Source: Bilabrum cf. latius
Taxonomy: Eukaryota
Direction: 5' to 3'
Assembly: GCA_965178125.1 (NCBI GenBank)
Contig: OZ237750.1
Location: 62,001-126,000 of the forward strand
Length of the DNA stretch: 64,000 nucleotides
Part shown: piece by piece, positions 14,301 to 63,835 of the stretch
Layout of the letters: every line of letters begins with the position of its first letter
How positions within the stretch are numbered: position 1 is the stretch's first letter
Translations under genes and position numbers: made by a program
Notes under the pieces: model-generated
The model's database searches: none
Seen by the model: the letters and a program-made list of their open reading frames with translations, nothing else
Told to the model about the DNA's origin: nothing

Positions 14301-17300
14301 TTGGGCCATCAAGCGGGGCAGTCTTCTCAAAATGTAGCACATCATTTGGTGGCGTCTTTTCCGGAAACAACAGTCCCACTGATAACGGCTCCGGATCCAG
14401 TCCGTTCTTAAGTGCGGTCTTCTCGTCATGTCCCTTGGAAAATTGATGTATACTGCCACTGCCCTTGAGGTGGACCCCCACTGCCAGAGCAGGCCGCTGT
14501 GCAAGACCCGATAAATGCTGCATGAAAATTTGCTTGAACCGTGGGCTGCTTCCGTTGGCCAAGCACTTGAGGTTTGCGGTCAGCTGCTCAAGCTTTGTCG
14601 CGCAATCGGACCGCAGGTGTTCGATCGACTCGAATGGGGCCACTGGCTAGCCCCTAAAAACGCGCCTGGCCTACTCAAGCAGGGCAAGCGACTCTGGCAG
14701 ACTTGGTTCACGCAACCTAGGGCTGCTGCTTCCTAGTGTGTCGAAGTTGATCTGCACCCCGTCCATGCCCTCCAGCAGTCTCCTTGGTAGCAGTCCGCAC
14801 ATCACGTGGCGGTACGGACTACCAAGCTCCCCAGGCAGCTTGTTACTGCCCAGTACAGTCCCTGTCCTAGCGGTGAATAGAACAGACGTGCCCCCGGGCA
14901 GTCGGTGAGCCATGAGATCGCCGATGAGCTGCACTATGGGATGCTGCGTGGAGTCCTGCAGAACCTGCTGGGTAGCTCCAGAGCCGTCTCCCTGCAGCTT
15001 CGAAGGATCCAAGAGAACTGTTGCCCCATCAACGATCACTAGCGCGCGCCTCTGCATCTCCATGGTGTTGCCAAGGGCCTTGAAGGAGCTAGCTGCCTCG
15101 ACAGCTGTCAGCCGCTCCGCCCACGCTATTGCATGATCGTGCGATCCACGCACACCTTCTTTCCCCAGGGCAGTCATGCGCTACACGTGACGGCGAATAC
15201 CGGAACCGATGCATTCCTTTGCCCTCTTTAGGAGCTAGTGTTCCATGAAGGACCATATCGTGCCGTGCTGGTGCCCCCGAGTCGAGTCGCCTGCAGCACT
15301 GCTACTGAAGGAGCCTTGCGCTGCGCCAGAGCTAAAGTGACCTTGCGCCAAGTCACCCACCGGCAAGTAGTAGACCCCTCCGCTGTATAGGCAGGAGCGT
15401 ACCGCTTGATTGTACATGGCTACGGCACCAAGCGTCTTCCCGGATCCTTGCGGACCAACCAGACCGACGAGCTGACTGGACCCAGAGATCGGCGCCAGCA
15501 GCAGCGCCGCCTTTTCAAGCCCATCGGAATTGACCAAGCATGCACTCCCAACCTCGTCGCCTGGGATTTTACCCCACAATACTGAAGGGAAGCTCTGCGG
15601 CGCCGAGAGGATTGGCCTGGTCTACTCTTCGGGTTCTATAGCTGCAGGTGCGCTGCCAGGCAACTGCAGACTTGGTAGCAGCCGCTTGCCTAACGCATTT
15701 GGCATGGAATACTCACGTAAACTGCTGCCTTCTTCGCTAACTAGCCTGTCAATGGAATCTAGAACCTCCTGTGGCTCTAAATCACGCCTGCTATCACGCA
15801 AGTGTGAGGCACCTAGCCCAAGAATTAGTCTGGCAGATTCCGGGTCTCTACACAGGGAAACTGCATGCCCTAGAGAAAGCCTGTCAGCCTTGGAAATGTC
15901 GAAACGTAGCAATTGGCTGGCTTCTACAGTTTGAAGCAGTTTTTGCTGCTCAGTCTCTGGAAGAGCGTGCAGAACTTGGCGTGGAAGCAGTCCGCACATC
16001 ACGTGGCGGTACGGACTACCAAGCTCCCCAGGCAGCTTGTTACTGCCCAGCACAGTCCCTGTCCTAGCGGTAAATAGAACAGACGTGCCCCCGGGCAGTC
16101 GGTGAGCCATGAGATCGCCGATGAGCTGCACTATGGGATGCTGCGTGGGATCAACAAGCGAGCTAACGTGCTACGCTGCCGCGGCTTCGTGTGGATCTTG
16201 AGCAAGGGGATCAAGCCTAGCATCAGCGCCATCCACCAAGACAAGAACGTTTTTCCATCCTTCAAGTTCTTCTCCCACCTCTCTAAAGGAGTCGCTGCTC
16301 GTAATGCGGTCGACGCGAGACGCCCAGGTTGCCTACAGACGGTGCGCCTCCGCAGGAGACAGGTGAGGGGACCCGCTAGATCGCAGCACAGCCAGGAAGT
16401 TCCTGACTCCAAGACTTACAACGGATTTCAGTCGCTGAAGAAGGTGATGCTCCATGCTTGACCAGAAGCCATTTACATCACTGGATCTGGTGCTATCGCC
16501 AGCCATAGGTGTCTCGGCATCTGCTGCACCGGCGCCAGAGCTGGCACCTGCCCCGCTGTGTGGGTGCGGGGAGGAGTCGGGTACCCCAACTGCAGCAGCT
16601 GCCATGCCAACGCCTTCATGCTCCATTTCTGCGCCGTAGCTATCAGGCGCGGGGAAGTCCTCAAGTCTCACAGCCGCTGCAATGTCACCAATCGGCAGGA
16701 AGAAGACGCCGCCGGGATGGGTCTCTAAGTTGACAGCATGCCGAGCCATCTTCAGGGCTCCGATGGTTTTGCCGGCAGATACAGGGCCAATCAGACCAGT
16801 CAATTCCGCAGTCCTTCCGACTGTACTGGCACTCAACAGCGTCTACACGGTTCCGAGGCCCCCTTTGTTCAGCAGCAGGATATTGTCGGTCGTCGACCCC
16901 TTGATTTCCCCCTCTTTAGGAATGAAGGCTGGCGCGAAGCTGTCTGGGCCAAGCATTGCGGCAGGGGCATCTATTCCTGCAGCAGCAGCAGCAGCAGCAC
17001 GGGCGCAAGCCTGCAGTCTCGCTTGCGCTTCAAACAGCCCTATGGCGTGGAGAGATGCTGGCCGAATGCTCACGTCGCCTTCCGTCCGCTAGGCAATCAA
17101 GTTCATGACGCCCTCGTGCTTGTAGGTGTACAACTGCCAAGAGGGCATGATAAGGGCCGGTTGTTTGTCTTCCTCATTCTCGCCTTCCTCTACCTTCCCT
17201 TCCCCCAGCTGGCTCGAGAGCACTTCCTCTTGAGCCGCTGTCAACGCTGCATTGACTCTACCAAACGATCTCGGCAGCTTGGAAGCAAGGGCATGAACAA

Positions 17301-17963
17301 AAGCACTGACAGTCTCTTCTGCAACACCGCCCGTGTCGATTGCGATTACAAAGGGTACTCCGGCAGCGCACGCGCGCAGACCGATGCTCGCTGCTCCATG
17401 CTCCTGGTGCACGATAAGAATAGAGGCGGGCATGCGTTGCTGCTCCATCCCATGCCCCGCTCTTCCATTCAGACCACGTCCGATTGCTCTCGCTAGCTGC
17501 TCACCCGTGACTGTATCATACCCCGCTGGGTTTGGCTGCGCCGAGTGCAGGTGGATGCACGGCTCCTGGCCTTCGTCAGCCAGAACAGGAGCAGACAGCA
17601 CGACCACATCTGACTTGCCACCGCAGATTGCTCCGGCAATCGATGGTAGCGTTGCAGTTTCGATCCGCTTGCAGGGAAGGCACCCGGCAACCAGTGCTGA
17701 TTTCCATGTGTGATCTTGGCCCGTTGATTCCGTGCCCCAGTACGACACATTCATTTCAAAGCTACCCTCAGCAGCTTGTCCAGTCCAATGTGCACCATAA
17801 AGGTCCGCTTCGGCTTGCTATGTATCCAGACTTATCATAGCTTCTTGTTCCGATTGCAACCCGTAATTATCAGGTGGCAAGAGTACTGGTGCCCCCATTG
17901 GCAAACCGAAGTCGTCTACGAGCTAGAACACGGACTTTGCGCCAGCCGGAGTCATCCCAGGTA
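8371..17963 (-). CDS. 3' part of giant multidomain protein: degenerate CHAT-like domain, three P-loop NTPase (STAND/NB-ARC-like) modules, SH2-like domain, possible degenerate kinase-like segment
   Basis: About 20 listed ORFs from 17089-17754 to 8554-8865 lie in one frame, and the gaps I translated contain only TAG. First TGA at 8371-8373. Walker A: GPVSAGKT, GPQGSGKT, GWPRSGKT, each followed by GGV(F/Y)(F/Y)xP(I/V)GD. Walker B-like VLVL(V/I)DG and LVIVDG. SH2-like AASEMLQNTDGPAFVIRFSGTPGCLAVS (~11540-11620). Confidence 0.8.
14789..14951. repeat. 163-bp near-identical direct repeat, copy 1 (copy 2 at 15986-16148)
   Basis: Both copies encode TQHPIVQLIGDLMAHRLPGGTSVLFTARTGTVLGSNKLPGELGSPYRHVMCGLL; two substitutions seen by eye. 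Confidence 0.9.
15986..16148. repeat. 163-bp near-identical direct repeat, copy 2
   Basis: Matches 14789-14951. Confidence 0.9.
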
Positions 17964-18135
17964 TTAGCAGGTCTGGGGTTACAATCAGTAAGACCGGAAC
18001 TGTAGAAACTGGGATTGATTTGCGTGAAGGCCGACTCATCTTCCCGAGGGTACGCCGAAGATACTGATCTCGGCAGTGCTCAAGAAGACACGTACTACAA
18101 TGTAGTGTAGTTCTGAGTCAGCTTGCAAAAGTTTT
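17964..18135 (+). repeat. Split direct repeat A1
   Basis: TTAGCAGGTCTGGGG...GCAAAAGTTTT, identical by eye to 24085-24256. Confidence 0.95.
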
Positions 18136-24811: not shown

Positions 24812-24964
24812 GCGCAGGCTGCACCAGCAGCCGGGTCCCCTTGTGGCGCCACGGGTGGTCAACCGCCCGAGGAGCCGGGGCCCAGCACGCCCTCGCATTT
24901 TCTAGCAACCCTAACCGGAGGTTCTAGAACTGATTCGATGTAACGTACAAATCAATGTCAGTTT
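24812..24964 (+). repeat. Split direct repeat B2
   Basis: GCGCAGGCTGCACC...AATGTCAGTTT, identical by eye to 23932-24084. Confidence 0.95.
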
Positions 24965-29073: not shown

Positions 29074-32000
29074 TTACTGCACCTCCCCACCGCCAGCCGC
29101 ATCAGACCGTGCCCCATCGGCCGCAGGTCCTGCAGAGCCAGACCGCCCGGCGGCACCTTCCCCTTCCTCCGTGTCTGTACCCTCGCTCTCCCGCTCGACG
29201 ATGGGCCCCAGCCCCGTGTTCAGCGAAGGTTCCCTAATCGGTTCCTCCGCGGTGCTCCCGCTGTCCCCGCTGCCATTGTGCACTGCACCTGACTGCAAGA
29301 AGGGAGACGAGCCGCCCGAGGCCCCGGTATTCCGCTCCGCTACCGCGCTCGTCCTCAGCTTGGAGGGGCTACCCCTTGTTCCCTGGGCGTGCCCCACTTG
29401 CTCGGACCTCGCGTTCCTCATGGCAGTGGCCCGCTTGGCCTCGGCCATCTGCTGCTTGACGTCCTCCTCGAACTGGTCAAGGCCAGTGGGCAGGTTGGTA
29501 GGGTCTACCTTCCATCGGTGGTAGCTGTACATGAGCACCTCGGTGCCCTTCCACAGCGCCGCTGCTGCCCTGTCCAGAGGCAGCCGCATCCCGTCCACGC
29601 TGCCACCGGGAGGGAGGGCAGCAAGCGCATCCGCGGGCTCTGGCTCCCCCTCCTGCCCCTCCCTGGCCTCACCCTCCCAATGGCTGCCCTTGGACGCGCC
29701 CCCATCCGCCTTCTTCCTGGCCTCCTCCGCCGCGGACAGGCCCAGGAGGGTCATCCTCCTCTCCACCTGGTCCCAGGCGCATGCGTCCGACCACCAAGTG
29801 GCCAGGGGTGAAGCGGGGCTGCTATTCTGCCCCTTACCCTGGCTCTGCGGCTCGCCCATCGTCGCGTGATCGCTGCTGCCAGCACCAGCGGCAGGACCAG
29901 TGGTACTAGAGCCGCCCTCAACTGGCCTTGTGCCTCTAGTGTGGTTATCCTTGTCGAGTGCGATGCTGCGATGCAATGGAAGAGGGGCCGCACCCGTCGA
30001 TGTCTCGAATCCGTACATGCCCTTCATCGTGCTGCCTTCTCCAGGGGCGCACACGACGGCCAGCGGTCCCAGCTGGGACGCGACCACCTGCGCGGCGGCC
30101 TGCTTGCCCAGCGACCGAATGCTGTCCCGGCCGAGGCCGGGCTGGAGACCCACGGCATCGCACGCCTGGGCGTCCAGCTTACCATTCGTCACACCTGCGC
30201 CCGTGCACCGCATCACTCCGTCTTGGTCCAGAGCGAACGCATGTGCGCCCAGCAGGCCGTGGGCCAGCACACCGTGCTTGTACTTCCGGAGGGCACGGTC
30301 CACGGGCGAGTCCGCGATGTCGTCATCCTCATCATCGTCATCAAGCTCATCCTGGCCCTCCGAGCTCGACTCCGCGTCTGCAGTGTCTGGTGCAATTCCG
30401 GCGGCGTCGGCTGTAGCAGTATCATCGGAGGGCGCCGCAAGCGATGATCCGGCGGCAGCCGCGGATGCAGCGAAGCTCAGCGAGAGCTGCAGCCCTTTGC
30501 CCGCATCGCTGCCGCTGCCACCACCCTTCGCGACGGAATCACCATCCCCTTCTCCTCCGGCCTCCTCCAACGGGTCGACATCATCGCCACCATCGCCAGC
30601 AACCGAGCTCGCTTTCTGCGCGTTGACAGCCTCAAGCTGACACACAACGAACTTCTTCATGCCCTCGGGTGTCTCCCCCTGCTTGAGCGGGAGCAGTTCC
30701 TCCGGCATGAGGGCCTGCCTGGAGCTCTGCAGAGTGAGGTAGTCTTCCTGCGCGCCAGACCACGTGTGTCCCTTTTCCACGGCATTCATGCTCGCTTCCC
30801 TGTGCTCCTCGGCGGCAGAGCGGCGGGTCATGCTGCGGCTGCGGCTGCGGCTTCTCGAGTTCTTGTAGGCGGCAGCGCCCTTCCTGCCCTCCGTGGCATC
30901 GGCTCTCTTCTGGCCCGAACCAGTCGCGAGACTGAGACTACCTTCCTTCTTCTTGTCCTGCTATTTGAGAGCCGAGACATCCATGGCTTCCACGCTGCCT
31001 CCAAGCGAGGGGTGCTCCCCGAACCCTGCGAAGCCAGGGCCATACAGCGCCGCTCGCAGGGCAAGGATGGCGTCCTCGGCAGCGAGACGGAGGTGCGGCT
31101 CGGGGTTGAGGAGGTGCCTCAGGATGGCCTGCAGTGCCGAGGGGCAGGCGTGCTCGGGTAGCTCCGGCAGGCGTTCCAGCAGGTCATTGTACTCGTGAAC
31201 GGGCGGGAACTGGAAGGGACCCTTGGTCTTTCCCGTCGCGATGGCCTGCGCAGCAGCTAGCTCCCACACGATCTTGGCCGCAGACCACGCATCGGAGGCC
31301 AGGTACACCTGAGCCAGCGTGTGGGGTCGGAAGCCCTCCTGCTCCTGCAGCTTGGTGAGGTATCCTCCCTGCTGCAACCGGAGCAGCTCGGGGGCAGTGG
31401 CCTCCCTCAGGCCGCCGCCCGTGAGCTCCGCCTGTCTGAAGGGGACAGCGTCGCTGAGCAGGTGCTGCGAGTCGTAGACAGAGGGCTTCCTGCTGGGCGT
31501 CCTCGACTCGTCCAGCCCCAGCCCCTCGAGGCCATCCCCGACGTCCTCTCGGCCAGAGTTGCCCGAGGGCTTGGCGACGAACACCTCATGCACGGTGTCC
31601 CCGTGGCTCCCTCCAGTCATCAGATCCATGTGGGTCGATGTGCGGCTACCCATGGACAGACCTCCAATGGTCCTGCCGGCGACGCTCCCGAGCCTCGATG
31701 AGTCCCGCATGAGCTTCCGCCTGAGAAACATGGACTGCACCGCAGCATCCTCCGACTCGTACGCGCCCATCAGGTGCATCTCCTCGCTGCGGGCAGAGCT
31801 CGTCACTGTGACTCCCCGACCCCAGCCGCAGACGAGCAGCCGGCCCTCGGCGCACACGTGCACGTTGGCACCGCGGAGGTCACGGTGCACCACGCCGGCA
31901 CGGGTCCTGGCATCATCTACGGCCTGCAACAGCTGCAGAAGCCACAGCGAAAGGAGGCGCCCGGATAGCATCGGCGGCTGGCGAAGGAATTGCTTTGTGG

Positions 32001-35000
32001 CCGCGTCGTCAATCTCCTGCTCGTGCGAAGGCGTGAGCGTGACCCTGGGCGGGTCCACCTTGACGCGCAGCTTGCTACGCGACTTGTGCCTGCGTCGGTC
32101 CGCCGGCATGTTGGCAGCGGTGCCGCCGCTGATGCTCCTGCCGCCAGCTGAGGCAACTGCAGCTCCCTTTGGGCTCACCACTGGCTGGACTTGGTCTTGC
32201 GATACTGTCGCGCTTCCACCCTTCGAGCTAGCGTCAGTGGTATCAGCTTGTCCAGCCGAGCTGGCGTTGGATCCTGCCGTTGCGGCCGGCACAGCACTAC
32301 CTGCCGCCTGTGCATCGGCAGAAGCAGAGTCGCCTGCTTGTGACCGAGAGGCACCTGCAGCGGATGCCTCGTTCGCTACTGTCCCAGGGACACCGTCAGT
32401 CGCATCCTTGCTGCTGGAAGTGTCCGCGCCTTTGCCGGCATCACTCGCAAGTACTGTACCCGCGTCTGCCGCGCTGTTGCTTTCATCTTCTTCGTCTTCC
32501 GAGTCGGACTCGACCACTTTCTTCCTCTTGGTCCTGCGTGCGCCAACACACCAGCCAAAGCAACCCGCCTGCAGCTCGATCTCATCCTCTTCCGATTCGC
32601 TCTCTGAAGCATCGGACTCGATGCTATGGTCATCGAAATTGCCAGCTTCAGCTGCAGCTGCGGCGTCGGTATCGGCAGCATGGCCTGCATGTTCGTCCGG
32701 TGCACCCACAGCTGCTGCTGCATTCCCTGTTCCCGCTCCCTTGGGAGTCGCGGGGTGCCCATGCCCATAGTCCTGGTCGTGGCCACTGGCGTGCGCTTTC
32801 TACCCGAGCTTGCGAGCCACAACAGCCGCCGAGAAGGCGTTACCCGGCAGCTTCTTCCTGCCGCGCGTTGACGAGCGCTTGCCGCCTCCCTCAGCGAAAA
32901 ACTTCGCGTCTGATTCCTGCTGCAGCTTTCTCCTCAGCTGCTCGCGGGCCTCGCCTCTCATGTGCTCGTAGGCAGCGATCACCAGGTCACGCACGGCGAC
33001 TTGCACATCGTGCATGGTAGTGCGGGTCAGAGACGGCGGTAGCACCTGCCACTGAGTGGCCGGGCTGACCGCGCCGGCCTGCAGGAGGGCCGGGTCCACG
33101 GCCGGCAGCAGGAGCGTGGAGGCCCCGGTGAACGTGGACACGTGCGCTCCTGCATGGGGCGAGTGGCGCATGAGCCGAGACAGGGCGTACTCTCGCGCGC
33201 GCCTCTGCCGGTAGCTGTCGTAGTCGTAGTGCTGCAGCCTGACCTGCGGCATGCCGCCCTGTGGCGAGACGGAGGACCGCAGCACGGAATGGGTTCCGGT
33301 GTGCAGCGGCGCGTTGGAGCGCAGCACCATGATGCCGTGCTTGGGGTGGAACAGGACGAGATCCACACCGTCGTCGTCCGTGACAGCGACGCTGCCGTGC
33401 GACTTGCGCTCGCCGTACGGGAGCACGGTGCTGCGCGCCTGCCAAGCTTGAGAAGGCCTCGCCGTGACGAGCTGCTGCCCGTCGGGACCGGCCACGAGCT
33501 GCACCTAATACCCGCCCTGGGTGTCGGACGGGTCCACCCCTGTCTGCAGCAGAGGGTAAGGAGCTGCTTCCACGCCCCGCCTTTCTGTCTCCGCGGCTGG
33601 AGGCACCCCGTCCATGCCTCCGATCACGATGCGCAGGTGGGTCTCCGGGCGGGGGCCTTGCTGCGCTGCTGCTGGAGCGGCTTGAGAGCCGGTATCGCTG
33701 GTACACTCGGCTGCAACGGTCTACAGCGAGACTCTCCTCGACTTGGCGGGTGCGATAGCATCGATCACGACCCACTCGTCATCTTTCTTCGAGACGCGCA
33801 TCTATGACGGCAGACCGCTGACGTACTGCTGCCTCACCCCAACGATTGACCCTGCGATGCCCGTGGCGCTTGCACCGGCCATGCGCCGGCTGCTGTGTAG
33901 CATGGGTCCTACACGCGGAGCACCCTGAGTGGCACTGGAACGATGATCTCCAGCGGTAGCGGCAGCTTCCTCCAGACGAACTGAGACGAACCACATGCTG
34001 GACTTTTCGGTTCCGTTCTTGCCCACGCGTCGCGTGCAGCCCATGAACGTGGGGTGCTCCCTGGGCTTTGCCTGAGTCATCACATGTTCCCCAATGCGGT
34101 CGCTGTCAATCTTGAGCTGCATCTCAGCGTCTGCGATCGCCTTGGGCTCCCTGAGGGGTGGCCACGCCTCGGTCGGGATGTACCTCCACGTCTTGCCCCA
34201 GCTAACCACGCTGTTGACGGCCTCCCGGTCGATGCGAAGCATGGCGCTCACGGCGTCCTGCAGAGGCCCCCTCACCTGCTGCATGAGCTCGAGCTGCTTG
34301 CGCATGCTGTCAGCGAACACGGAGCGCTCGATGGCGCGCGACTGGGCCAGCACGGCCTCGCTCCACGCAACGAGGCGCACCAGGGGCATCTTGCCCGGCC
34401 CCGCGGATCCCTTGCCGCCATGTGCCACCATGGCGGTGCTTGTGACCTCCGTGCCAGAAGGCTCCTGCCTGCCGGGAGAGGGCACCTAGCCCCACACCCC
34501 GCTCCTCTCAGAGTCGCGAGACATCGCCGTGCCCTCGCTGTCCTCCTTGGCCGGCTCCTCTTGCGGCAGCCCCATGATGCGCCGGATGAGAGACACCATG
34601 GCGGGCTTGCGGGTGCTTGCCCAGTTGTGCAGCGCCGCGGCAGTCTCCCGCTCGTGGAAGCGCCTCCTCTCGTCAATGCTGAGGCCCTGGTACAGCTCCA
34701 GCCCCCTGAGGCTGCCATCCTCGCGCAAGTGGCGCAGCGGGGGCACCAGCATGAGGGCCTCCTGCTTGCGACCGGCACGGCCGCCCTTGAACTGTTCCCC
34801 GAGAATCTCGCTCCGAGTTGCCACGAGAGAGCCGGCAGCAAGCGCCTCCACCACGTCCTCGCGGAAATCGCCCACCTCGCTGCTGGGCTCGTCGCACGCA
34901 CCAGCAGCCGTGCCGGCACTAGAGCTCGCCGCTCCGCCTGTGGCCTAGCCTGTTTCGCCTGCCGGGGAGTCTAGCACGCCCTGCTCGAGCTGCAGCATCA

Positions 35001-36999
35001 GCTCCCTCGACAGCTGAAACTTGCCGCCCTCCTCCGCCTGCTTGCGCACCCGCTCGCGGACGTGCCTGGCACTCCGAAGCCAGCTCAGGTCCTGCCCTCG
35101 CTCCCCGCCTCCTTGCTCCAGCACGAAGCGCAGCGCCTGGCCCATTCCCCAGGCCGCCTGCGCGTACAGCGCCGCTTCCGGCGCGATCCTGCTGGCGCTG
35201 CCTGCGGCCGTGCCCAGCAGCTTTCTCAGCCGCCTGGTCTGTCCCTCGGCCACGTCCGCGCGTCTCTCAGCCTGTCGTGCTGCCGCCTGTGCCCGCTTCA
35301 GCCTTTCCTCCAGAGTTTCTGCCGAGTCCTGCTTCTTCTCCACGACCTCCACCCTGTCCCTGTGGTACTTGAGGACCGAGGTGACCAGCGAGGTGAACCC
35401 AGCCACGTGGTTGCTGAGGCCCACGCCCAGGTCCTCCCGCCTGTCCTCCATGTACTTATTGAAGTCGGTCAGGCTGGCCTTCACGGTGCCCTTGAGGGTA
35501 CCGAACTCGCTCGCGGTCTTGTGCACGGCGGTCTTGAGCCGCAGCAGCTTCCTCAGCAGCACGTTGCTCTGCTGGTTCACAGCGTCGGCCTCCCCGAGCC
35601 GCTTCTGCTGCTCTTTCTGGTTCAGCTGCGGCACAGCCACTTCCACGTCTCGCAGGATCGCTGCGCATCCGTCGTCTCGAAAGAACACAGTGGGGTGGTA
35701 CTGCGCCCCGCTCGGCATACCCCCGTGCAGCATCAGCCAGCGGCCACTCTCCGCGAGGGAAATGGTGCGGGCGTACAGCGTGCCGGTGGCCCTGGCTCCT
35801 GGCTTCCCGATCATCGCCGGTGGAGGCTGCACCACAAGCATGAACTGGTACTGCAGGGCACTGCCGGCCAATTTGGGCCTGAGCTGGGCCCGGAACACGG
35901 CCCACTCCTGCTCCCTTGCTGATACAGCCCGACCTCCCATCGCAGGCGGGTCTTCCGAGTGGTGGCCATCTGTGCCCGCAACCGTCGTGCGCTTCCCGTC
36001 CACGTACACGTCGCCCGTCTGCACGTCAATCGCGACGGAACCCGGCGAGCTGAAGGCGGACCCGGTCCGGAGGGGGGCGCAGGACACCCCGATCAGAGCA
36101 TCGGGCCGCCAGCCAGCCTTTGGGTTGGACTGATCTGCACTCGTCACATCGATAGCCCATCGCATGCGCCCTTGCAGGAGACCCTGTTCGGCTGTCACGG
36201 CCAGGTGCGCCGATCCCAGCCCGCTCATCTCCTTCCTGCTGTCCCAGTCGCGCCGCACTGCCACTGAGGCTGGCTGGCCTGCGGCACCGCCCGCACGGAC
36301 TTTCTCACCCTCCAGGAAACGCACGGACTTCTTGGACCCGGTGGCAGCACCGCTGGGGACGTCTCGCGGGCTTTCTTTTACTCGCTAGATATTGACGACC
36401 TTGCTCAGCTTGGGAGCGTAGTACCCCTTGAATGACTAGGGGTTGGCGGGGACAGGCTGGCTGTTCCAGTTGACGAGAGGGTCTGCTTTATTCTCCACGA
36501 TCCTCTTCATTTGTTGGCTGAGTCCTGACACGTTTTCGATGAAGGCGGGCACGTCGAAATCGTCTGGTGTGACTTCGCTAGAGCCGGCATCCGAGCCGTT
36601 GTCGGAGCCACTCCCGGTTGCACCGCCATCAGGGGACTGCGGGTTGCTCGGCTCCAACTCCGCCGCATGTCCGTCTCCAATAGCTCTAATATGAGCTTCC
36701 ATGGGCTACGATGGGTCCTCCTAGGGATTCTGTCCAGGTCTGCCGGTCGTAGCAGTTGCAACAAGTACAGTCGGTGGCTGCACATCGGAACCAGCATCAT
36801 TTGCCCCTCGATCCTCAACGCTAGGTGCATCAGTGAATTTGCCTGTCTCTCTTCTTCCCATGACACCTTCTTCAATTTCTCCGGTGTTTCCTGCGGCCTT
36901 GTCTTGGTCTGACTTTCCATCCGAATCAGGTTCATCGTCGTACGGACTACCGAGAGAAGCCTCCTTTCGAAGCTACTCCAGACTGTGTGAGTAAACCAT
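29074..36999 (-). CDS. ~2,640-aa protein: SPRY-like domain, coiled coil and divergent protein kinase domain (PINK1-like C-lobe)
   Basis: ATG 36999; seven ORF pieces in one frame joined by TAG; ends TAA 29074-29076. Kinase motifs LLQLLQAVD, GVVHRDLRGAN, GWG in place of DFG, TAPE, SDAWS, LPELPE, LRAALYGPG. SPRY-like RWAIDV...LIGVS...YHPTVFF. Confidence 0.72.
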
Positions 37000-37937: not shown

Positions 37938-40773
37938 TCATTTCCAACCGCCAGCGCTGTCGTCACTGTCAGAATCGACGTCCACGACCGAAGCGGGTAT
38001 GGCGATCATCGCGCTCTTCATAGCGGGGTTCTATTCTGGATTCATAAACACCCCAGTATTCCTCCTCTGCAGCTTCTTTCGTCGGAATCCGCCCGACGAG
38101 TCGCTATCACTGCTGCTATCGCTGCCGTCTCCTGCCCTGCTTGCTGCCTCTTTCTGCAACCGGGCTCGGGTGCTCGCTGGCACGCGAGGGGTGGTCAGCG
38201 TCAGCAGAGAGCCCGTCCCCAGCTTGGCCAGCTTCGGCCGGGACACCATTGACTCTCCCCCGTCCGAATCGGAATCAGAATCCGAGTCCCCTCCTTTTCC
38301 GGGGCCGCCCCTCGGCCCCTGCCCCTTCCCCTTCGACTCCTTCGCGTTGCTGAGAGGGCTGGCCCTGGCCGGTGGAGGCGGCGCGGACTTGCCCGCGCCA
38401 TTGCCTCCGTTCTCCTCGTCGTTACCACCGCCCTCGCTGTCGCTGTCTTTGTCTGCACCCCCTCCTTTGGTCTGGCCCGCGGCCTCCCCTTGCTTGCTGT
38501 CGTCTTCATCTTCATTCTCGTCCTCCTCAAGGATCGCCAGCCGAGCCAGTGCAGCCTGTCTCTTTGCCTCTCTCGAGTCTGCCTTCTTGCCCTTGCTCTT
38601 CGACTTGGAGGCATCATCGTCATCGCCTTCGCCTAGTGCGCCCTTCTTGCCCTTGCCTTTCTTGCCACCCGACTTTGTCTTGGCCGGCTTCGCAGCTGCC
38701 GCTTTCCTAGCCGATGGAGGCGCCTTGCGCACGACAGAGCCCTGCTCATCCTCGTCATCATCCTCGTCGTCGTCGCTCGCATCTTTCTTGAGGACCAGAG
38801 ACACGGAGGACTTCGTGCGGCCCTTCTTGAACTGGCTGAACCTGGCAGCCAGCTGGTCGGCGAAGGAGAGCTGGGCCGTGTGCCCCTTGCCCTTCTTCTT
38901 GTCCTTCTTCTTCTTCTTGTCCTTCTTCTCGCCGTCCTTGTTCTTGCTCTTGCTCACCTGGCGCAGCTTCTTGCCAGCCTAAATCTCCGCCAACAGACCC
39001 ATCGTGCCCCCAGACGCAGGGGCCTCTGCCTCAGCCTCTGCCTCGGCCTGGTTCTCCTCGTTTCCGGCCAGCTGGTCCCCTGCATCCCCGTAGGCCCCGC
39101 CGCCCTTCCCCATGTCCTCGCCAGGCCCGCCGACTCCCTGAGTGCCCCACCCAGCACCCGCATCCTGCGCGTTCGCAACACCCATGCCCGGCATCTCACC
39201 TGCCTGCGCCACGCCCATACCTACAGGCAGCTCGTACCCTGGGTCGGCCCCGGGCTGAGCCCCTGGATATGGGGCCCCTCCAGGGGGCGCCCCGTTGGGG
39301 GGAGGCACCCCAGGGGGGGGCACCCCTGGGGGAGGCACGGCGAGAGCGGGAGCGGGCGCGCCCCAGCTCTAGGTCTGGTGCCCCGGAGGGGGCTGTGACG
39401 AGGGCGGTGGTGGGGGATTGGTTCCGTTAGCTTGCGGTGCCGCGGCTGCGGGAGTGCCTGCCGGCGGCTGCTGTTGTAGTTGTGGTTGTGGGGCGGCCGC
39501 TGGTCTTGCAGGCTGCACGTCCTCAATGGAGAGCACTCCATTCCCCCGCATCATCTCGTTGAGCGCCGTGGGCAGGAGACTCGTGAGGTCCACCTGCGTG
39601 TCGGCAGCGTACCCAACTCCTCCATCAGACGAGGATCCTGCCACTCCGCCGCCACCACCGCCCACCGCGGCCGCTGTCTCCTGGCCCGACCACGTCATAT
39701 CCGCCGTGTTGGGCAGGTTGAGGTTCTGGGGCAGCTCCAGCGCCTCTGCCTCCTTTGCCTGTGGCCTGAAGGAGTAGTCCAGGTCGGAGACGTCCCTTCC
39801 TGCCCGCTGGTCGATGGTCGCGGGTCGGGCGCCGAGGACCCCCCCTTGCTTGGCGGCGCGGCGCCCCTGACCCTCGTCGTCCTGGTCCCCGTCGAGGTTC
39901 GAGCCCCTGCCCGCCTTGCTGGGGTAGTGCTTGTACGGGTTCTGCTTCGAGTTGAAGAGCAGGACCGACGCGCCGCTGCGGAGGGCGGAACGGGCCGGGA
40001 ATAGGCCCAGGCCGCTGGGAGCATCCTCGCCAGGGGGGTCTGTGCGGTCATCCACCAGCCTCGTGCGGCGGAAGAGGTCCCTTAGCTGTCTGCGTGCCTT
40101 TGGGTTGAACGACTCCTCGTCCTCGCCCAGCATCATGGGCTCCTCGCCGTCGTCCTCGCGGAGGGTCGCGGGGTCTGCCCCGGGGGCAGCGTGCGTGATG
40201 GGAGGCATGTCCATGGGCTCGTCCGAGTATACCTGGCCTTCCTAAAGAGATCGAAACGGTGCCGGCTTAGTAAGGCTCGGGGGGTATCGGCTGGATGCAA
40301 ACAGCGCGGTGGAGAGGTTGGGCCGCGCCGCGATGCGCTACACCTTGCGCTCTGCCGCTGCGATCCGACCCTGCAGGGAGCTGAGCCGCTGGCGCTCCTC
40401 GGACACCTGCGATCATGGCATGAGCAGGGACACAAAGTGCGTGCATACGGCTCAATGGGTTCGACCCCTGATCTGGATCGCAACCAGGCCTCGCTAGCCG
40501 AAACACAACTTACACGATTGCGGATTCTGGTAAAGATTTGCGTGCTTGTTCGCTCCAAGTGTCTCAGAGAGTCGTACAATAGCCTACTAATATCTTCATC
40601 GGCCACGTCATGCAGTGCAACTGCGAGCAGATACAGGTTTAGGTACGGCAACTGGGTATGCCAATGCGTGGGCAAGTCAGATGGGGTGCCACCTAAGATT
40701 AATATCGACAACCCGACGGACAGAATGAAATCTTACCAGGCTGAGATACTACCTACGAGCACCGAATAGACAT
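37938..40773 (-). CDS. WASH1: WASH complex subunit 1 (WAHD domain, Pro-rich region, WH2, acidic-Trp C-terminus)
   Basis: Probable exons 40773-40737, 40620-40514, 40406-37938. WAHD-like DSLRHLERTSTQIFTRIRNRV, ASSRYP, SVLLFNSKQNPYKHY, YSFRP, LPQNLNLPNTADMTW. WH2 LLAEI*AGKKLRQV. End DSDSDDSAGGWK-TGA is reached only through the TAG at 38031. Confidence 0.88.
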
Positions 40774-43630: not shown

Positions 43631-46600
43631 TCATCCCTCCATGGCCTCCTCGTCCTCCATCATGGCGTCACCACCACCAGCCACCGCTCCGCGCTTGCGC
43701 GCGCTGCTCGCGGCTGCCCCTGACGCCGCGCGGCCCCCTGCAGCCGCCTTGCCGGCACCCTGGGCAGCGGCGTCTTCCTCTTGCATGATGGTGTGCACGA
43801 AGCCCAGGGCCTGTGCCTGCGTCTAGGACACCACGCGGCTGCTTTTGTGCTCAAAGGCGATGCCAAACCACCTGTCGGCGACACGCACCAGCTCGGGACG
43901 GAACGTAGTGGTGATGAACTGCGCGGCCCTCCGCTTGCTGTGCGCTTGCCTCTGGACCAAAGCCGCCACTGCTCTCCGATGGGTGGGGTCGAGGGCCTGG
44001 TCGATCTCGTCGAACAGGTAAAAAGGGGCGGGGTCGCACCTCTGGATCGCGAAGATGAGGGCGAGGGCCACGAGAGTGGCCTGGCCCCCGGAGAGAGTCT
44101 GCATCGGGTGCGGCGTGTCGCGCTCGTTGAACGATACCTTGATCTGCACGCCTTTGAACCTGGGCACCAGTGCCAGTACCCGCTCCAGCTCCTCGCTCGT
44201 CTCCTCCTCTTCCGCTTCTTCCTCTCCATCCCCCTCCTCGTCCTCGTCATCCTCTTCCAGCTCGTCCTCGTCCTCGTCATCCATGCCCCGCCGCCTCCTC
44301 CTCCCACCCGACCGCCTGCTCGCCGCCTCTTGCTCCCCAACGGCCCGCGCCGCCTCCTCGTCATCGAAGTCCAGTCCAGCGAGCCCCTCCGACGTGAGGT
44401 CGAACTCGCCCCCGTCCTCGTCCTCCTCCGCCTCTCCCTCCGACTCAGACTCGCCTTCCTTCCGCTCCACGGCACCAGATCCGGCCTCCTCCTCCTTGCC
44501 CCCCCCCTCTTCAACGTCGTCCTCATCGTCCTCTCCCTCCTCCGCAGCAGCCGCCGATGCCCTCGCGCTCGGTCTCTTGCGCTTGCCCACGCGCATGTAC
44601 AGACGCCCCTGACCCCTAGGCACCAGCTCGGAGAACACGGTGGCGAAGTGCTGCGCCACGCCGCGGAAGGTCCTGAGAAGCGCCTTGTCCTTGCGCCTGT
44701 CCAGTAGCGAGATCATCTGCTCCAGCTTGCCCGCCGCGCTGGACATGCCCCCGCGCCTGTGCTGCAGCTCGTCGCGCCTCTTGGCGAAGGCCTGGTGCTG
44801 GTCGATGGCCTTCCTGTTGACGTGGGCGTATTTCTTTAGGTCCGCGTTGACCCTCTTGAGGTCCTTCATCAGCGCCTTCCTGTGCTTGCCCTGCAGCGCC
44901 TCGAGCTCCTCCCTCCCCACCGTGCCGAGGTCCCTGATCTTGTTGGCGCACTCCTCCCTCTTCCTCTCCAGCATCCTGCGCTTGTCGGTGACCTGGTCCC
45001 GCTCCTCCTGCAGCCGCTCCAGCTCCTTCCGGTCCGTGGTCTGCACCTCCAGGAGCGTGCCCACGTCGGACTGTTCCTTGGTCAGCTGCCCCCTCGCCTC
45101 CTTCAGCCGAGACTCCACCTCTTGCAGGCGGGATGTGGCCGCGTCCTCGGCAGCCTTGGCCTCCTCAAGCGCGGCCTGGGACTCGCGCACCAGCCCGTCC
45201 AGCCCGCCCTCCGCGCCGTCGCCACCGTCCTCCCCACCCAGACCGCCGTGCTGCACCCCCAGCCTGGCACGCAGCGACTCGGCCCTGCGGTCGAGGTTCT
45301 CCCTGAGCCTCGCCTCCAGGCTCTTGACCTCCGCCTCCAGGTCGCCCACCCTCACGCCGGCCCTGCCCTCCTCCTCACGGAGCGCCGCAAGGCGGTCCTC
45401 CAGCCCTGCCAGCTCCTCCTTGGCCTCGTCGCTGCCTCCCTTCTGCAGCTTGGTGCCGATTTCCTCCTCGTACGAGGACACCTGCGCCTCCAGGCCGGCC
45501 ACCTCGGTGCGCAGCTCGGCGGCGCGCGCTGCCTGTGCCCTGGCCTTGGCACCCGCCTCCTCCACAGCAGCGGCCGCGTCCTGGCGGCCCTTCCGAGCCG
45601 TGGCGGCCTCGTCCCTGGCCCGAGCCCGCCTGGCCTCCAGTTCCTGGTGCTGCTGCCGCACCTGCAGCGCGGCCTGCCCCAGCCGGTCTGCCTCGTCGGC
45701 TGCCCTCCTCTGCGCGGTCCTGGCCTGCAGGAGCTGCTCCCTCACCTTGATCAGCGCGGCGTGGGAGGACAATCGGCTGGTCTCCGGGTCGAGGAACCCG
45801 CCGCTCATGGTGCCGCCCTTCTCCACCCGGTCCCCGTGCAGCGTAACGCCCTCCCACCCGCCGGGCAGCTTGCTCACCTTCACGCAGGTGGCAGCGTCCC
45901 TGCAGAGCATCACCTTGCCGAAGACCTGGGCCACGGCGGGCTCCACGTCGTCCTCGTAGTTCAGCCTCTCGATCAGCGGAACTGCGTCGTTGCTGCGCGG
46001 CGCCGCGTCCACGCCCTCGTAGGCTGGGAGCCTCTTCAGCGGCACGAAGGTAACGCGGCCCCTCCTCGTCTTCTGCAGGTGCCGGATGCACCGCGCCGCC
46101 ACGGCTTCGTCCTCCACGATCACGTTGAACAGCCTGAGCCCGGCCACGCTCTCCGCTGCCACGTGGAACCTGTGTCCTGTGGGCACGGCCAGCTCCAGCA
46201 GGGTCCCCTTGATGCCCTCCCACCCTTCCTCCTCCTGCAGCCGCCTCACCTCGAGGAGGCCAGACCGCAGCTGGGCTGGCAGCCCCCGCAGCGTCTTCTC
46301 GTCCGCGTCCGTCCTGGCCTTGGCGAGCTCGTCCACGGTCGCCTGCGCGTCTTTCTCCTCCTTCAGGTGCTCCAGGCGGGACCGCAGCAGCTCGGAACGC
46401 TTGTTCCCCAACTCGTCCAGGTCCTTGGAGGCCTTGGCGTAGGCGGCCGCGGCCTTGTCCGCCTGCTTCTCGAGCTTGGGCACGGCCGCTTCCGCGTCGC
46501 TGGACCGCTTGCCAGCCGCGGCCGCCTCCCCGTCGCACGCCTTGATCTGCGCCTGCCTCGCCTCGATCTCCGCCCGCAGCTCCCTCACTTGTTCCCTGAG

Positions 46601-49370: not shown

Positions 49371-49427
<57 letters not shown>

Positions 49428-49587
49428 CAGCAGCAGTAGCAGCAGCAGTCGAGGTAGCCATATGGCTGCGGCCAGCTCAAAGTTAGGACAGGTAGATCCT
49501 GTGGCAGGGGCAGGGAATGGAGTCAAGGCCTCTGTTCCGATGGGAGGGGGGCATGGGTTGGACAGAGGTGCCGGGCCGGTGGGGTGA
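48447..49587 (+). CDS. ADAT2: tRNA-specific adenosine-34 deaminase catalytic subunit
   Basis: Exons 48447-48500, 48598-48708, 48805-49587. EVPVGC, HAE, LYVTVEPCIMC, FGGCGSV, AVDLLR*FYSRGNVRAP (TAG 49114; second TAG 49234); poly-Ser tail; TGA. Confidence 0.92.
49371..49448. repeat. (AGC/AGT)n microsatellite encoding poly-Ser in the ADAT2 tail
   Basis: About 26 AGY triplets in frame. Confidence 0.9.
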
Positions 49588-56515: not shown

Positions 56516-59500
56516 ATGTCTGGACTTGGAGATATTCTAGCAGGATCCGAAGCTCCGCCTGGAGACGGATCCGCACCTGATGGCGGATATAGAGGCTCTC
56601 AGATGGGCCCGGTAGGCTCACCAAAAGATGGCGTTCCTGAATCGAACGGCGGCATCGCTGCTCCCGGCATCGTTGGCATGGGCGGCATCAGCAGCGAAGG
56701 AGCTGGCATGGGGGGAACACCCGTGAGGCTTGGTCGGGGTCCGGACCTAGGCCTTGGCATCGGCGGTGCGCCCGGCTTCCCAGACCTAGGGCCAGTCGCG
56801 GGTGGCGCCGCGGCGCAGTCGAACGGAACCGGCGCCGCCCCCCCTGCCCGCGACGCCAGCGCAGCCGCCGTGGGCGGCCCTCCCGGCCTGCGGACCCCTT
56901 CCCCCGGCAAAGCCGGCCGCATGGGCAGCCGCCTGGGCCTGACCCCCGGGTCGGGCTCAAGGTCCACGGCCCGCATCTCCGCAAGGCTGTCCCAGCCGGT
57001 GGAAGGCGTCGAGCTGAGCCCGTTTTTGTTCCTCCGAGACTCCACGGGGCTCCTCATCAACGCCCAGGACGAGCGGGTCACATTCCGCTGGTAGCGGTCT
57101 ACCACCCACAGGGCCTGCGCATTCAGCGGGTGCAGGTACCTGAGCTCGGCACCCGCGGAACAGGCGGCGAAATGGCCCGCCGCAGTGCAATGCGCCACCA
57201 TGGCCAAGGCGGGGGCCTCCCCGGAGAGGTCTTTGTACTGCAGCCCTGAGTGCTACCAGCAGGCGTGGTCTGGCCACAGGCAGTACCTGGAGCTAGCAAA
57301 GTCCCCTGACGGCACGATGGACTTTTCGCGGGCAAAGTACACGCCACTTTCGCTGCCCGGGGGCGAGGAGGCCAAGCGGGAGGCGCCCGGGGACAGCGCG
57401 GCCGCGGCCAGCGGCGCCAGCACGAGCGCAAGCTCCGGCGCAGGCGGCGGCAGCGGGAGCGCGTCCAGCGCCAAATCGGAAGATGAAGATGAGAGCGAGC
57501 TGACTGCGAGCGAGGCGGCATTCGCGGCTGCAGAGGCCCTGTACAGCGGGCCGGCACCACCCCTGCAGCCGGGCCTGATGCACCCGCCGCCCTCGGCGGC
57601 AGCTGGTGGTCGGGAGACGGGAGGCAAGGCCAAGGAGGCGGCTGCCGCTGCTGCCGCTGCCCACTCTTCGAAGTCGAAGGCCGAATGGATCGACCTAGGG
57701 GAGGCGAGGACGTACGTGCCGAAGGCCGAAGACGTGTGGCACAGGATTAGGCTGCTGGTGGAAGCGGACATTGGCGGGACCGATGGCTTGCTCACCGAGA
57801 CCGCAATCACTCACCCCGTGCTGCCCAGACCCCCGCTGGCCGCTCACCGAACGTTCGTTCCGCTCACCAGGGACCCCAGGACGGGGACGGCTCCCCGCGC
57901 AGACGTGCCCCCCGCGCAGGTGGTGGCCAAAGAGGGCGACAGGCGGCACCCACACACGGTGCGTGTGGTCAGCTACAACACGCTGGCGGAGATCTATGCC
58001 AACCAGGGCGTGTACCCCTACTGCCCCAACTGGGCCTTGTCCTGGCAGTTCAGGAGAGACCTCATCATCCGAGAGCTCCTGCGGCTGGACGCTGACCTCG
58101 TGTGCCTGCAGGAGGTGCAAGCGGACCACTTCCTGAGCATGCTCAACCCGGCCATGAAGGCGGCGGGGTACGACTCGCAGTACAAGCAGAAGACGAGGGA
58201 GTCCATGGGGCTAGAGGGAAAGGTGGACGGGTGCGCGTTCTTCTACAAGGCAGGCAGGTTCAAGCTGCTGGAAAAATACGTCGTGGAGTTCAACGCAGCG
58301 GCCAAGACCGCCTCCGAGGCAGAGGCGAATGAGCTGAGGCGGCAGCAGGCAACGCCGGCCCAGCGGGCCCAGCACATGAAGCGCCTGGACAAGCAGCTTC
58401 ACCGGCTGCTGCGGGACAACGTGGCGCAGGTGGTTGTGCTGCAGATGACAAAGGACGCCCAGGGCAACTCCATCACGGAGCCGTCGGGCGAGCAGCCTCT
58501 GATCTGCGTGGCGAATACCCACCTCTTCTGGGACCCGGAATTCGCAGACGTCAAGCTCTGGCAGACGCAGATGCTGGTGCGTGAGCTGGAGAAGCTGACA
58601 GCCAAGAGGGGGCTGCCGCTGATCCTGTGCGGCGACTTCAACTCCGAGCCCACCTCGGCGGTGCACAAGCTGCTGGCGGGGAACGCCAAGGCGGGCCACA
58701 GGTGCCAGCTGCAGCATGAGGACCTGCCCGCCGACCCACAGGGTATCCTGCCCCGCCAGATGGCGCGGCTCAGCCACGGGCTGCTGCTGCAGTCCGCCTA
58801 CGGGTCGGTGCTGGGAGACGAGCCGCGGTTCACCAACTACACGGAGCAGTACGTCGGCTGCCTGGACTACATCTGGATCAGCGCCGACCGAGCCACGCCC
58901 GTGGCAGTGCTGTCTGTGCCCCACGAGAGTCAGCTGACCGCGACCAGCAGGTCTCCGCTGCCCAACCCGCAGCACCCGTCAGACCACGTCAGTCTCTGCG
59001 CAGACATCGTCATCGGCATGCCGTCCCACGGTCTGGCTCGCAGTGCTCTCCCGGCAGGCGCCATGGGGCCGGGGGCCGCTGGTGGCATCGGCGGACTCAG
59101 CAGGGGTGTTGTGGCGAGCGGCCCAGCGCCAGGGCGGGTCATGCCCGGCGGGCTCGGCACGTTCCGTGGCAACGGGATGCAGCAGCAGCAGCACTCGTCA
59201 CATCAGGGCCAGCAGGGCGGCGTGGGCGTGGGCGTCGGGATGGGCGTGGGAGGCGGCCGGCCCACTCCTGGAGCGGCGGGTCACGGCCAGCTGGGTGGTG
59301 CCGCCGCGTCTGCCGGGTCACGAGCGGCCGCGTCTGGCTTCGGGCCACCCGTGGGACGCATGGGTGTGATGAGTGCGAGCCGAGGCATGCCGGTGGGCGG
59401 GACCGCGGGCGGGCCGGGGATGATGCTGGGAGGCATGCCGGGCGGTGGGCGGGGCGTGGGTGCAGGCGGGCCGGGGATGGGGCGGTTCGGTGGACCCGGC

Positions 59501-62153: not shown

Positions 62154-63835
62154 TCAACCCATGGCCTCCTCAAGCAGCTTCACGCACTCTTCGTGACCTC
62201 CAAGCCGAGCCGCCTCCAAAGCCGTCACGTCCCCGCCCGCACCACCCACCATGCCCCGAGCCACCAGCGCCCCCGCCAGCTTGCCCAGCCTCAGCCTCCT
62301 GGCCAGCTCCATGGGCCTGCCCTCGCTGGCCGCCGCCCACGCCAGGCCCCTGTCCTGCAGGGCCCGGCCCGCGTGCCTCCACCGCACGACGGCCCTGTGC
62401 CTGGGCGAAGTAGCCAGCGCCATGCCCCGCCTCCAGTCCGACGCCAGCCTAGTGCCGGGATAGTACCTTTGCAGCATGCCGTGGACGATGGCCGCGGCTT
62501 GTGGTCCACTCGTCACACCATCCAGGTCGCGCATGAGCGAGGGCGGCACTCGACTCCCAGAGATCTCTCCAAACCTGAAATCTTCTCCCTCTTTCGGCTT
62601 GGAGGCTTCCTCCCAGGCCTTTGCATCCGTTGTGAGCTCTCGCAATGCCTCCTATGCATCTGCCTCTGGCAAGTACGTCCGGAAGCTCCTGAGAGCTTTC
62701 TCTTGCTATCCGGCGCTGCCCTGCCCACTCTGGGAGGTACTGCAGAAGCCTTGCGATTTTTGGTGGTACCAGTACACAGCTTGGCTCAAATAGGAGATCA
62801 GGGCCTTGGGCGCGTGCGACCCGGCCTGAAGCAGCATGGCCATTGACACTACCTCGGTGGGGTGGTCGCATCGGGTGTCCGCGGGTGTGCGACCGGTGCT
62901 GTTGCGCAGGGATAGGTCGGCCCCGGCATTCAATAGAACTTGCTATACTTTAATGGCTGGGTGCGAATACCAATGCACAAGGCTGGCCTGCCGAGTCTGT
63001 ATGAAGTGCAGCAGGGTCCAGCCTGTGGTAGTTGCTGCGTTCGGGTCTGCCCCTGCTGCAAGCAGCAACTGTGCAATGGGAGCCATTGAATCGTGCGTGC
63101 AGAAGTGCAGGGGGACGGATGTTCCCTGCGATAAGAGTATGTATCGCAGAAGAGACGCATTCAAGATGTCGGTAGCACGCCACTGGCAGAGCCGGTTCAT
63201 GTCATAGACCCAAGTTGCGCACCAAATGTTTTTGCAAATGCAGCACTGCTTACCCAAGCTACGAACGCATGATTTGCTCCAGCGTCCAGAAGCCTCTTAA
63301 CAATGCGTTTACTCATGCTTGCGTAGTCTGGAGCGCCCAGGGTGTTGAAGAGCTCCTGAGACATCGGTCTTGAGAATGGGATCGCGCATGCAAGGCAGTT
63401 GCTGATGGAGGCGTTGGCTCCATGTGACAGTAAAAGTTCCACCATTGGAACATCTGAGTTATAACACGCTATATCAAGCGCTGTCGTGGTTGAAGGACCA
63501 CAATTCCGGCGGCCGGAGCCGGGTGACGTGATGAAGTTCGGATCGGCGCCGGAAGCAAGCAAAACGTTGGCAATCACGTGCTTCTGGTGAGCAACCACAG
63601 CTTGTAGAACCGTGAGCTTGACGTCATTTAAGAACTACGGGAGTCCCGACCACCTCTTAGTCGCCTACAGGGAGCATCCGAGAGCTGCGTACTCGTTGAT
63701 GATCTCCTTGACCTCATCGCTCCTATCGGCCACTGAAGCCTTGATGGAGTCAAGCAGGGCTATTGCCTTTTGCCGATCCTTTATATCCAAATCATCCAAA
63801 CGTCTTGACGCTGGTTTGTTAGAGCGATCGCTCAT
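62154..63835 (-). CDS. Ankyrin-repeat protein
   Basis: Probable exons 63835-63254 and 63125-62154 (intron GTAAGC...CGCAG); start tentative. Repeats LLASGADPN, TALDIAC...LLLSHGAN, LLLAAGADPN...GWTLLH, LLNAGAD...GRTP, TALEAARLGGHEECVKLL. TAGs at 63665, 63635, 62943, 62706, 62652; TGA. Confidence 0.8.

Follow-up and report, generated by a model that had tools for sequence, protein, structure and literature searches.

In the nuclear genome of Bilabrum cf. latius, UAG very probably means glutamine, as CAA and CAG do, with UAA and UGA as stops. The window considered here is a 64,000-nucleotide stretch of its 48.6 Mb, 111-contig eukaryotic assembly (GCA_965178125.1; contig OZ237750.1, positions 62,001 to 126,000; G000:C16:62001-126000), and the codon at issue is a TAG in the WH2 motif of a WASH1-like gene. 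The initial annotation of the window had favored Gln for UAG and kept Leu as an option; protein columns from across the genome agree with the former and now exclude the latter.

UAG as a glutamine codon

The WASH1-like frame (37938..40412, minus strand) combines WAHD and WH2 domains in 824 codons, with five in-frame TAG and a TGA at its end; in spliced contigs the gene continues across an intron at about 40405-40511 into an upstream exon that extends to at least 40620. Codon 478 (38979..38981, minus strand) is the TAG in LLAEI*AGKKL (asterisk, TAG), the WH2 motif of WASH1, and is read as Gln. The expectation that this position is normally polar was borne out by 18 motif matches in outside WASH proteins, which have Arg in 13 cases, Lys in four and Ala in one. 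With Arg at the TAG the Pfam WH2 score is 17.7 bits, with Gln 16.9, with Leu 13.9 and with X 13.2, and with Tyr the match is lost.

The remaining TAG codons of the gene, all on the minus strand, are codon 25 (ERKV*RI, 40338..40340), codon 57 (FRSL*EG, 40242..40244), codon 348 (HQT*SWG, 39369..39371) and codon 794 near the C terminus (38031..38033), the last covered by spliced contigs of runs X5 and X7. Relatives have Gln at all three of the TAG sites that they cover: a 95% identical WASH protein predicted under the standard code (P0241) at codon 348, and a 78% identical one (P0242) at codons 25 and 57. P0241 starts at the first Met downstream of both N-terminal TAGs and ends at LLAEI, that is, exactly at the TAG of codon 478. 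Similarly, all five members of the P0242 cluster, from contigs of differing length, end at YSFRP, the place of a Gln in the window. These protein sequences suggest that the code probably extends to a second species, the one with the 78% identical WASH, and standard-code gene prediction shortens the proteins of this lineage. More distant WASH proteins are less uniform. Codon 25 had been placed opposite Glu, which occurs in only six of them, along with Asp in 14 and Gln in 11; at codon 57 the suggested Phe is indeed common (Phe 19, Tyr 15, Leu 6), but the 78% identical relative has Gln there as well.

Contigs of runs X5, X6 and X7, from two studies, cover the TAG at 38979-38981 with no other letter, and two CT..AC introns, at about 40405-40511 and 36983-37135, are missing from them. 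These runs are not recorded as RNA, so that transcript status comes from the spliced joints only, and runs with a small share were left out. Because the contigs skip introns and show no other letter at the TAG, the codon appears to stand in a spliced, unedited transcript. In-frame TAG as a sense codon is genome-wide: 148 Pkinase matches hold 85 TAG, two TAA and three TGA inside (counted by hand), and 28 matches to the dynein domain AAA_6 hold 20 TAG and neither of the other two.

UAA and UGA are still stops and are not used within genes. All ten dyneins analyzed end at TGA (eight) or TAA (two), 0-4 residues from the homologous end, and none ends at TAG. Of 74 long frames chosen on their codon score, 64 stop at TGA and ten at TAA, with the coding score positive right up to the stop; TAG makes up eight of the 2220 codons in the last 30 positions versus 170 of 58,226 in the body, at similar densities. 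A code in which both UAA and UAG mean Gln (table 6) was considered and rejected, as UAA is not sense in the kinase or dynein matches and ends two of the dyneins, the other eight ending at TGA.

To assign the residue, we aligned ten of the dynein heavy chains of this genome (46,828 codons, 136 TAG) to 120 outside ones and used the 101 TAG columns with at least 40 aligned sequences, dropping the remaining 35. The outside dyneins are mostly orthologues of one paralogue, a source of noise that is equal for TAG and control codons. The mean profile opposite TAG (Q25 E10 K9 R8 L6 Y1) closely follows that opposite CAG (Q28 E10 K9 R6 L5 Y1); correlations are 0.986 with CAG, 0.985 with CAA and 0.43 with the next codon. 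Log-odds over these columns are 51.8 for Gln, 22.8 for Lys, 18.4 for Glu, -75 for Leu and -88 for Tyr. The initial annotation had proposed a tally of conserved columns, and where a column is at least 70% conserved (35 opposite TAG), Gln leads in 21, Glu in four, Arg in three, Asn, Lys and Leu in two each, Ala in one and Tyr in none. Control codons behave alike under the same threshold, with Gln leading 292 of 502 columns opposite CAG and 32 of 49 opposite CAA, Tyr 343 of 492 opposite TAC, and Leu 832 of 1055 opposite CTG. Kinases agree: 51 frames at 50 loci give 61 TAG rows, including two duplicates, and of these rows six fall at a conserved helix-E Gln column (Gln in 30 of 45 other rows) and none in a Tyr-led column. 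Taken together, these columns make it close to certain that UAG means Gln in this nuclear genome.

The decoding machinery and the origin of the change

A single nuclear gene for a tRNA with anticodon CUA lies at G000:C23:907607-907679 (minus strand, L002; 69.8 bits, full cloverleaf), with a T-rich run downstream and C at position 38. No tRNA-like UUA-anticodon gene emerged from a pattern search (25 matches, judged by eye, against 20 for the control); only 63 of the 780 first-look tRNA candidates were scored, so this absence is a pattern-level result. The tRNA-CUA body is closest to tRNA-Tyr(GUA) (L009, G000:C1:272024-272096), not to tRNA-Gln(UUG) (L010) or tRNA-Gln(CUG) (L038, L039), all outside the window. 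With tRNA-Tyr it has ten of 12 stem pairs in common, the top value among 503 cross-isotype pairs of 33 tRNAs (next, eight) and equal to that of Lys isoacceptor pairs, in a comparison set that is incomplete, with no nuclear His or Leu gene recovered. The acceptor stem matches tRNA-Tyr at 12 of 14 positions (next, eight) and the anticodon stem at eight of ten (next, six). Summed over the arms, Tyr reaches 46, Gln(CUG) 38 and Gln(UUG) 36; over the whole length, identity amounts to 50/73 with Tyr and 43/74 with Gln(UUG); and the variable loop has five nucleotides in tRNA-CUA and tRNA-Tyr versus four in both tRNA-Gln. Other parts point elsewhere. The D arm is nearest to Glu(CUC) (16/19) and Gln(UUG) (15/19), with Tyr at 11/19; the T arm matches Gln(UUG) at 13/17 and Tyr at 12/17; and tRNA-CUA has G73, common to Gln(UUG), instead of the A73 of tRNA-Tyr, and G2:C71 instead of U2:A71, a pair found in neither tRNA-Gln of this genome.

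Eukaryotic Tyr determinants are A73, C1-G72, G34 and U35, with A73 called critical for tyrosylation, and bacterial Gln determinants include G73, G2-C71, G10, U35 and A37, no eukaryotic Gln set being given in the sections available (PMC9976931). The tRNA-CUA keeps C1:G72 and U35 and, with G73 and C34, lacks the other two Tyr determinants. A tRNA-CUA of Tyr type had been named beforehand as grounds for giving up Gln; the likeness to tRNA-Tyr was found, and the protein evidence still says Gln. Since a Tyr-like tRNA-CUA coexists with Gln-like columns, the isotype of the tRNA does not decide the residue, a warning that tRNA isotype can mislead genetic-code calls. The two tRNA-Gln types themselves have only four of 12 stem pairs in common. 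Both recovered nuclear tRNA-Ile genes (L008, L041) have the anticodon GAU, which is unusual for eukaryotes, and neither model nor pattern gave a nuclear tRNA-His.

The genome has one eRF1 gene (L155, G000:C35) and one Pelota-like gene, and, on G000:C33 (L158), a gene that we take to be that of glutaminyl-tRNA synthetase (GlnRS) from its Pfam match and generally known motifs; eRF1 and GlnRS both lie outside the window. The eRF1 gene carries in-frame TAG at positions 44 and 69, so that its own synthesis requires UAG decoding twice. At position 44, 113 of 117 homologues have Gln; this TAG (L155:1418-1420) closes exon 2, immediately ahead of a GT donor. No change is seen in the motifs GTS and NIKS, in E55 or S70, or in the Y, C and F residues of YxCxxxF. 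Six changes, each seen in none of 112-117 homologues, including Bicosoecida sp. CB-2014, lie beside GTS (A27T, G29A, N30D, I35V), in TASNIKS (S60V) and in YxCxxxF (K130H). We infer that these six may have caused the loss of UAG reading.

In the mechanism that we propose, the cytosolic GlnRS would load Gln onto the single tRNA-CUA, which would pair with UAG and not with UAA, and eRF1 would have lost most of its UAG recognition through the six changes. The tRNA would have arisen from a duplicate of tRNA-Tyr(GUA), its CUA anticodon by the one change G34C, escaped tyrosyl-tRNA synthetase (TyrRS) by A73G and moved to GlnRS with a Gln/Glu-type D arm; on the stem likeness we rate this origin somewhat better than even.

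Several observations weigh against parts of this account. Individual TAG codons face other residues: Ile in the best-scoring solved SMC3 chains (43823..43825, minus strand), Leu, which scores best at an ankyrin-gene site (62943..62945, minus strand), and Tyr in the Pfam column of a VAC14 site (1634..1636, minus strand; 29.5 bits with Tyr, 25.5 with Gln); the hydrophobic character noted beforehand for the SMC3 and ankyrin sites was correct. One kinase TAG stands in a clearly Leu-led column, and at eRF1 position 69 homologues have Leu in 111 of 117 cases and Gln in five. A neighbor-context test gave a negative correlation with CAA and CAG in 35 frames, and in 74 frames a flat Gln-neighbor enrichment (TAG 1.16-fold, CAA 1.49, CAG 1.83, TAT 1.23, TTG 1.35). 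The 74 frames are also too few to bound TAG-ended genes below a few percent. In the tRNA, the acceptor stem agrees with the two tRNA-Gln at only six and two of 14 positions, and C1:G72 is a Tyr determinant. In eRF1, T32 is intact, unlike the T32G of Iotanema spirale (PMC5304391, in the part available), and the unique residues need not concern stop reading, because the organism is divergent overall. The hydrophobic exceptions are about as frequent at ordinary Gln codons: Leu exceeds 50% in four of 101 TAG columns versus 34 of 1552 CAR columns in the dyneins. The context test is confounded by base composition, as the TAG share of Gln codons drops with third-position GC content (GC3; rho -0.56, 37 frames).

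Alternative meanings of UAG fare poorly on the same data. The idea that the TAGs reflect lesions in pseudogenes, errors of assembly, introns or editing has a negligible probability and was rejected: no support was found for it, kinase matches hold 85 TAG versus five other stops, the only eRF1 gene carries TAG, and spliced contigs of two studies are identical at the sites. Leu, the meaning in rhizarian exLh and a TARA ciliate lineage, could appeal to the ankyrin site, eRF1 position 69 and the two conserved dynein columns led by Leu, but its log-odds are far below zero and the short variable loop and G73 of tRNA-CUA differ from the long-arm Leu suppressors in the portion of PMC11687900 available. 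Tyr fits the stems of the tRNA and the VAC14 site, yet Tyr leads none of the 35 conserved TAG columns versus 343 of 492 for TAC, has the lowest log-odds and abolishes the WH2 match. Both Leu and Tyr are refuted by the dynein columns and the WASH relatives, and we regard either as exceedingly improbable. A context-dependent code, with UAG as Gln within genes and stop near mRNA 3' ends, might be suspected from the single eRF1 gene and from TAG lying within four codons of the final TGA in two of the 74 frames; it is very unlikely given that the last 30 codons show neither excess nor depletion of TAG, that no dynein ends at TAG and that the coding score stays positive up to TAA or TGA. Slightly less improbable, though still unlikely, is an ambiguous UAG, mainly Gln, with TyrRS also charging tRNA-CUA to a measurable extent. 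The retained C1:G72 and U35, the Tyr-like acceptor and TAG at aromatic columns in VAC14 and WASH codon 57 would suit it, but the tRNA has G73 in place of the A73 critical for tyrosylation (PMC9976931, in the sections available), TAG occurs at invariant Gln sites, Tyr averages 0.7% of the residues opposite TAG versus 1.1% opposite CAR, and Tyr exceeds 30% in none of 101 TAG columns versus 15 of 1552 CAR columns.

A different question is where a Gln-decoding tRNA-CUA came from. Descent from tRNA-Gln or tRNA-Glu, with the Tyr-like stems arising by convergence or later conversion of the acceptor, concerns the origin only and is a serious contender, to which we give a little under even odds. The D arm, T arm and G73 of tRNA-CUA speak for it, as do an anticodon stem close to the generic Rfam consensus and the missing nuclear His and Leu genes in the comparison set; the stem-pair match to tRNA-Tyr, the highest of all pairs compared, the whole-length and arm-wise identities and the five-nucleotide variable loop speak against it. 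No relic of a Tyr phase was seen at Tyr-led dynein columns, where Gln stands in 0 of 87 in the orthologue, without excess over relatives, and the tRNA-CUA pattern had no matches in metagenome contigs.

The organism is a flagellate, a bicosoecid-type stramenopile that groups with Cafeteria on one gene. Its best named dynein match is Cafeteria roenbergensis (60%), and in a quick dynein tree of 48 rows (28 hand-picked from 108 lower-ranked matches, seven from metagenome loci) its sequence is sister to Cafeteria plus P0001 (SH-aLRT 99) within a 12-row clade. Two metagenome sequences in this clade are free of in-frame stops over 3485 and 3510 aligned codons, and the C. roenbergensis dynein is listed at full length (4208 aa). 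As the nearest sampled relatives lack in-frame stops, the UAG change would thus postdate the split from Cafeteria, as judged on this gene. Among 80 metagenome dynein loci there was no clear TAG-only relative. Four of these loci may have other variant codes: L189 has TAG only (three in 834 aligned codons, 45% identity), L203 has TAA often opposite Lys, and L226 and L227 have TAA and TAG opposite Ala and hydrophobic residues. The mitochondrial contig (G000:C111, L047-L050; 38.4 kb, 24% GC) is open under table 4, its long frames end at TAA, and it has a tRNA with a UCA anticodon, as in bicosoecids (PMC6723347, in the part available, which treats the mitochondrial code only). TAG is apparently not sense there, and ARAGORN finds only ten tRNAs on it, so that most would have to be imported.

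In its fullest form our proposal is that this is, as far as the literature searched shows, the first variant nuclear code in stramenopiles and that a stop was captured by a tRNA-Tyr duplicate, which exchanged TyrRS for GlnRS when it gained A73G and its D arm was remodeled, while UAG moved from stop through Tyr, or mixed Tyr and Gln, to Gln. We hold this whole sequence tentatively, at not quite an even chance. If capture by a Tyr duplicate is true, residual tyrosylation might persist, and since the 78% identical relative probably shares the code and Cafeteria does not, the order of steps could be worked out.

Other genes of the window and the assembly

Reading through TAG yields long frames for VAC14, WASH, an inositol-phosphate synthase, SMC3, a 7TM-PIP5K fusion, CCR4 and ankyrin genes. 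Twelve long frames of the window contain 85 in-frame TAG, and the 11 that end inside it do so at TGA (nine) or TAA (two). A 2641-codon frame (29074..36999, minus strand) with 12 TAG and a TAA end is transcribed and spliced, with an intron at about 36983-37135. The richest is a 3248-codon frame (8371..18117, minus strand) with 33 TAG and a TGA end; in a search for short fragments of it, none of 8000 candidates gave a score, and no shorter homologue was found. Of its internal repeats, which had been cited in favor of Gln, VA*ELERW and VGEELEGW are in register by eye and RL*AT and RLQGT are not. This frame and that at 24729-27746 (minus strand) are rich in TAG and encode large proteins in which P-loop (NACHT-like) modules recur. 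A further VAC14 TAG in the initial annotation is at 1412..1414 (minus strand), beyond the reach of the alignments obtained, and VAC14 has no match among solved structures. The CCR4-like gene has a TAG in its N-terminal part (57092..57094, plus strand), short of which the solved-structure matches end.

Elsewhere in the window, a PIP5K domain is fused to a 7TM receptor (49733-55999, minus strand), and a zinc-dependent deaminase with two TAG (48799-49587, plus strand) is probably a tRNA adenosine deaminase subunit. An AT-richer frame at 60300-61517 (minus strand) has a periodic Lys/Glu/Met coiled-coil repeat, and a tandem repeat at 18313-21775, with strand skew and several open frames, is probably non-coding. 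At 44498 run X1 has an extra C, whereas spliced contigs of X5 and X7 match the window.

Outside the window, a frame of 34,977 codons without TAA or TGA (G000:C1:1036105-1141035, minus strand, L263-L274) holds 36 TAG, none of them from codon 10,662 to 34,776. Its product would be a surface protein of titin size, with N-terminal modules rich in cysteine and a long repeat of Ser, Gly, Val and Ala, the length of which may be an effect of assembly. A second, differing 18S gene of 1802 nt lies at G000:C95:6099-7900 (L052), the 18S of the array on G000:C12 having 1700 nt; the second one looks dinoflagellate, and its contig is probably foreign.

Comparison with known codes

Few lineages are known in which the nuclear code gives UAG and UAA separate meanings, and in the papers cited here, each available in part, the UAG-only Gln cases come without a detected decoding tRNA. 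On sequence grounds, the UAG-only Gln code appears to be of a rare kind that is already known and that we did not find in print for stramenopiles; the literature searched, which mostly did not cover subscription journals, showed no nuclear code reassignment in a stramenopile or bicosoecid among the papers listed. The assembly gives tRNA-CUA, eRF1 and GlnRS together, beside standard-code relatives, and thereby makes two questions testable: how an eRF1 can give up UAG and still act on UAA and UGA, and from what source suppressor tRNAs arise.

The nearest parallel is Iotanema spirale, in which UAG is Gln and UAA and UGA are stops (PMC5304391, PMC9161772). Both cases have the same codon meanings, UAG uncoupled from UAA, and a single branch among standard-code relatives. 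Iotanema is a fornicate, however, and the present organism a stramenopile, which suggests an independent origin. According to the sections available, Iotanema has eRF1 T32G and a tRNA-CUA that is only predicted, as a derivative of tRNA-Gln(CUG), whereas here T32 is intact and the tRNA-CUA was found and is Tyr-like. This Tyr-like tRNA is at odds with the descent from tRNA-Gln(CUG) that PMC5304391 predicted, and it may be the trace of an identity switch in nature. The phyllopharyngean ciliates Hartmannula sinica and Trochilia petrani, which are not stramenopiles, also read UAG as Gln, with no suppressor tRNA detected as far as the available text of PMC11687900 goes, and have the same codon meanings as here. 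In the rhizarian exLh and in TARA phyllopharyngean metagenome-assembled genomes (MAGs) UAG is Leu (PMC5304391, PMC11687900). Those codes, like this one, change UAG only, and a CUA anticodon was found in two MAGs, but the suppressors there are tRNA-Leu-like. At eRF1 position 69, exLh has Ala and the gene here a TAG-encoded Gln; this Gln is not diagnostic, because it occurs also in five of 117 homologues and in structure 8ip8. The ciliate PL0344 splits the meanings of UAA (Lys) and UAG (Glu) (PMC10553269) as they are split here, where UAA is a stop instead; in the material available for it, all ten CUA suppressors are nearest to tRNAs of the encoded residue, whereas here the nearest tRNA is of another isotype.

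Beyond eukaryotes, crAss-like phages with genetic code 15 have TAG as Gln only, as here, although these are phages in bacteria with an unrelated release system (PMC9523058, available in part). Laboratory amber suppressors derived from tRNA-Lys, -Asn, -Trp and -fMet insert Gln once they carry G73 or a changed first pair (PMC9976931). In the cases described there, a non-Gln body with CUA and G73 is accepted by GlnRS, as we propose for tRNA-CUA, though those are engineered and bacterial. The E. coli tRNA-Tyr amber suppressor su3 was reportedly also turned into one that inserts Gln. Set beside these engineered suppressors, the tRNA-CUA of this genome would be a natural, fixed and eukaryotic case.

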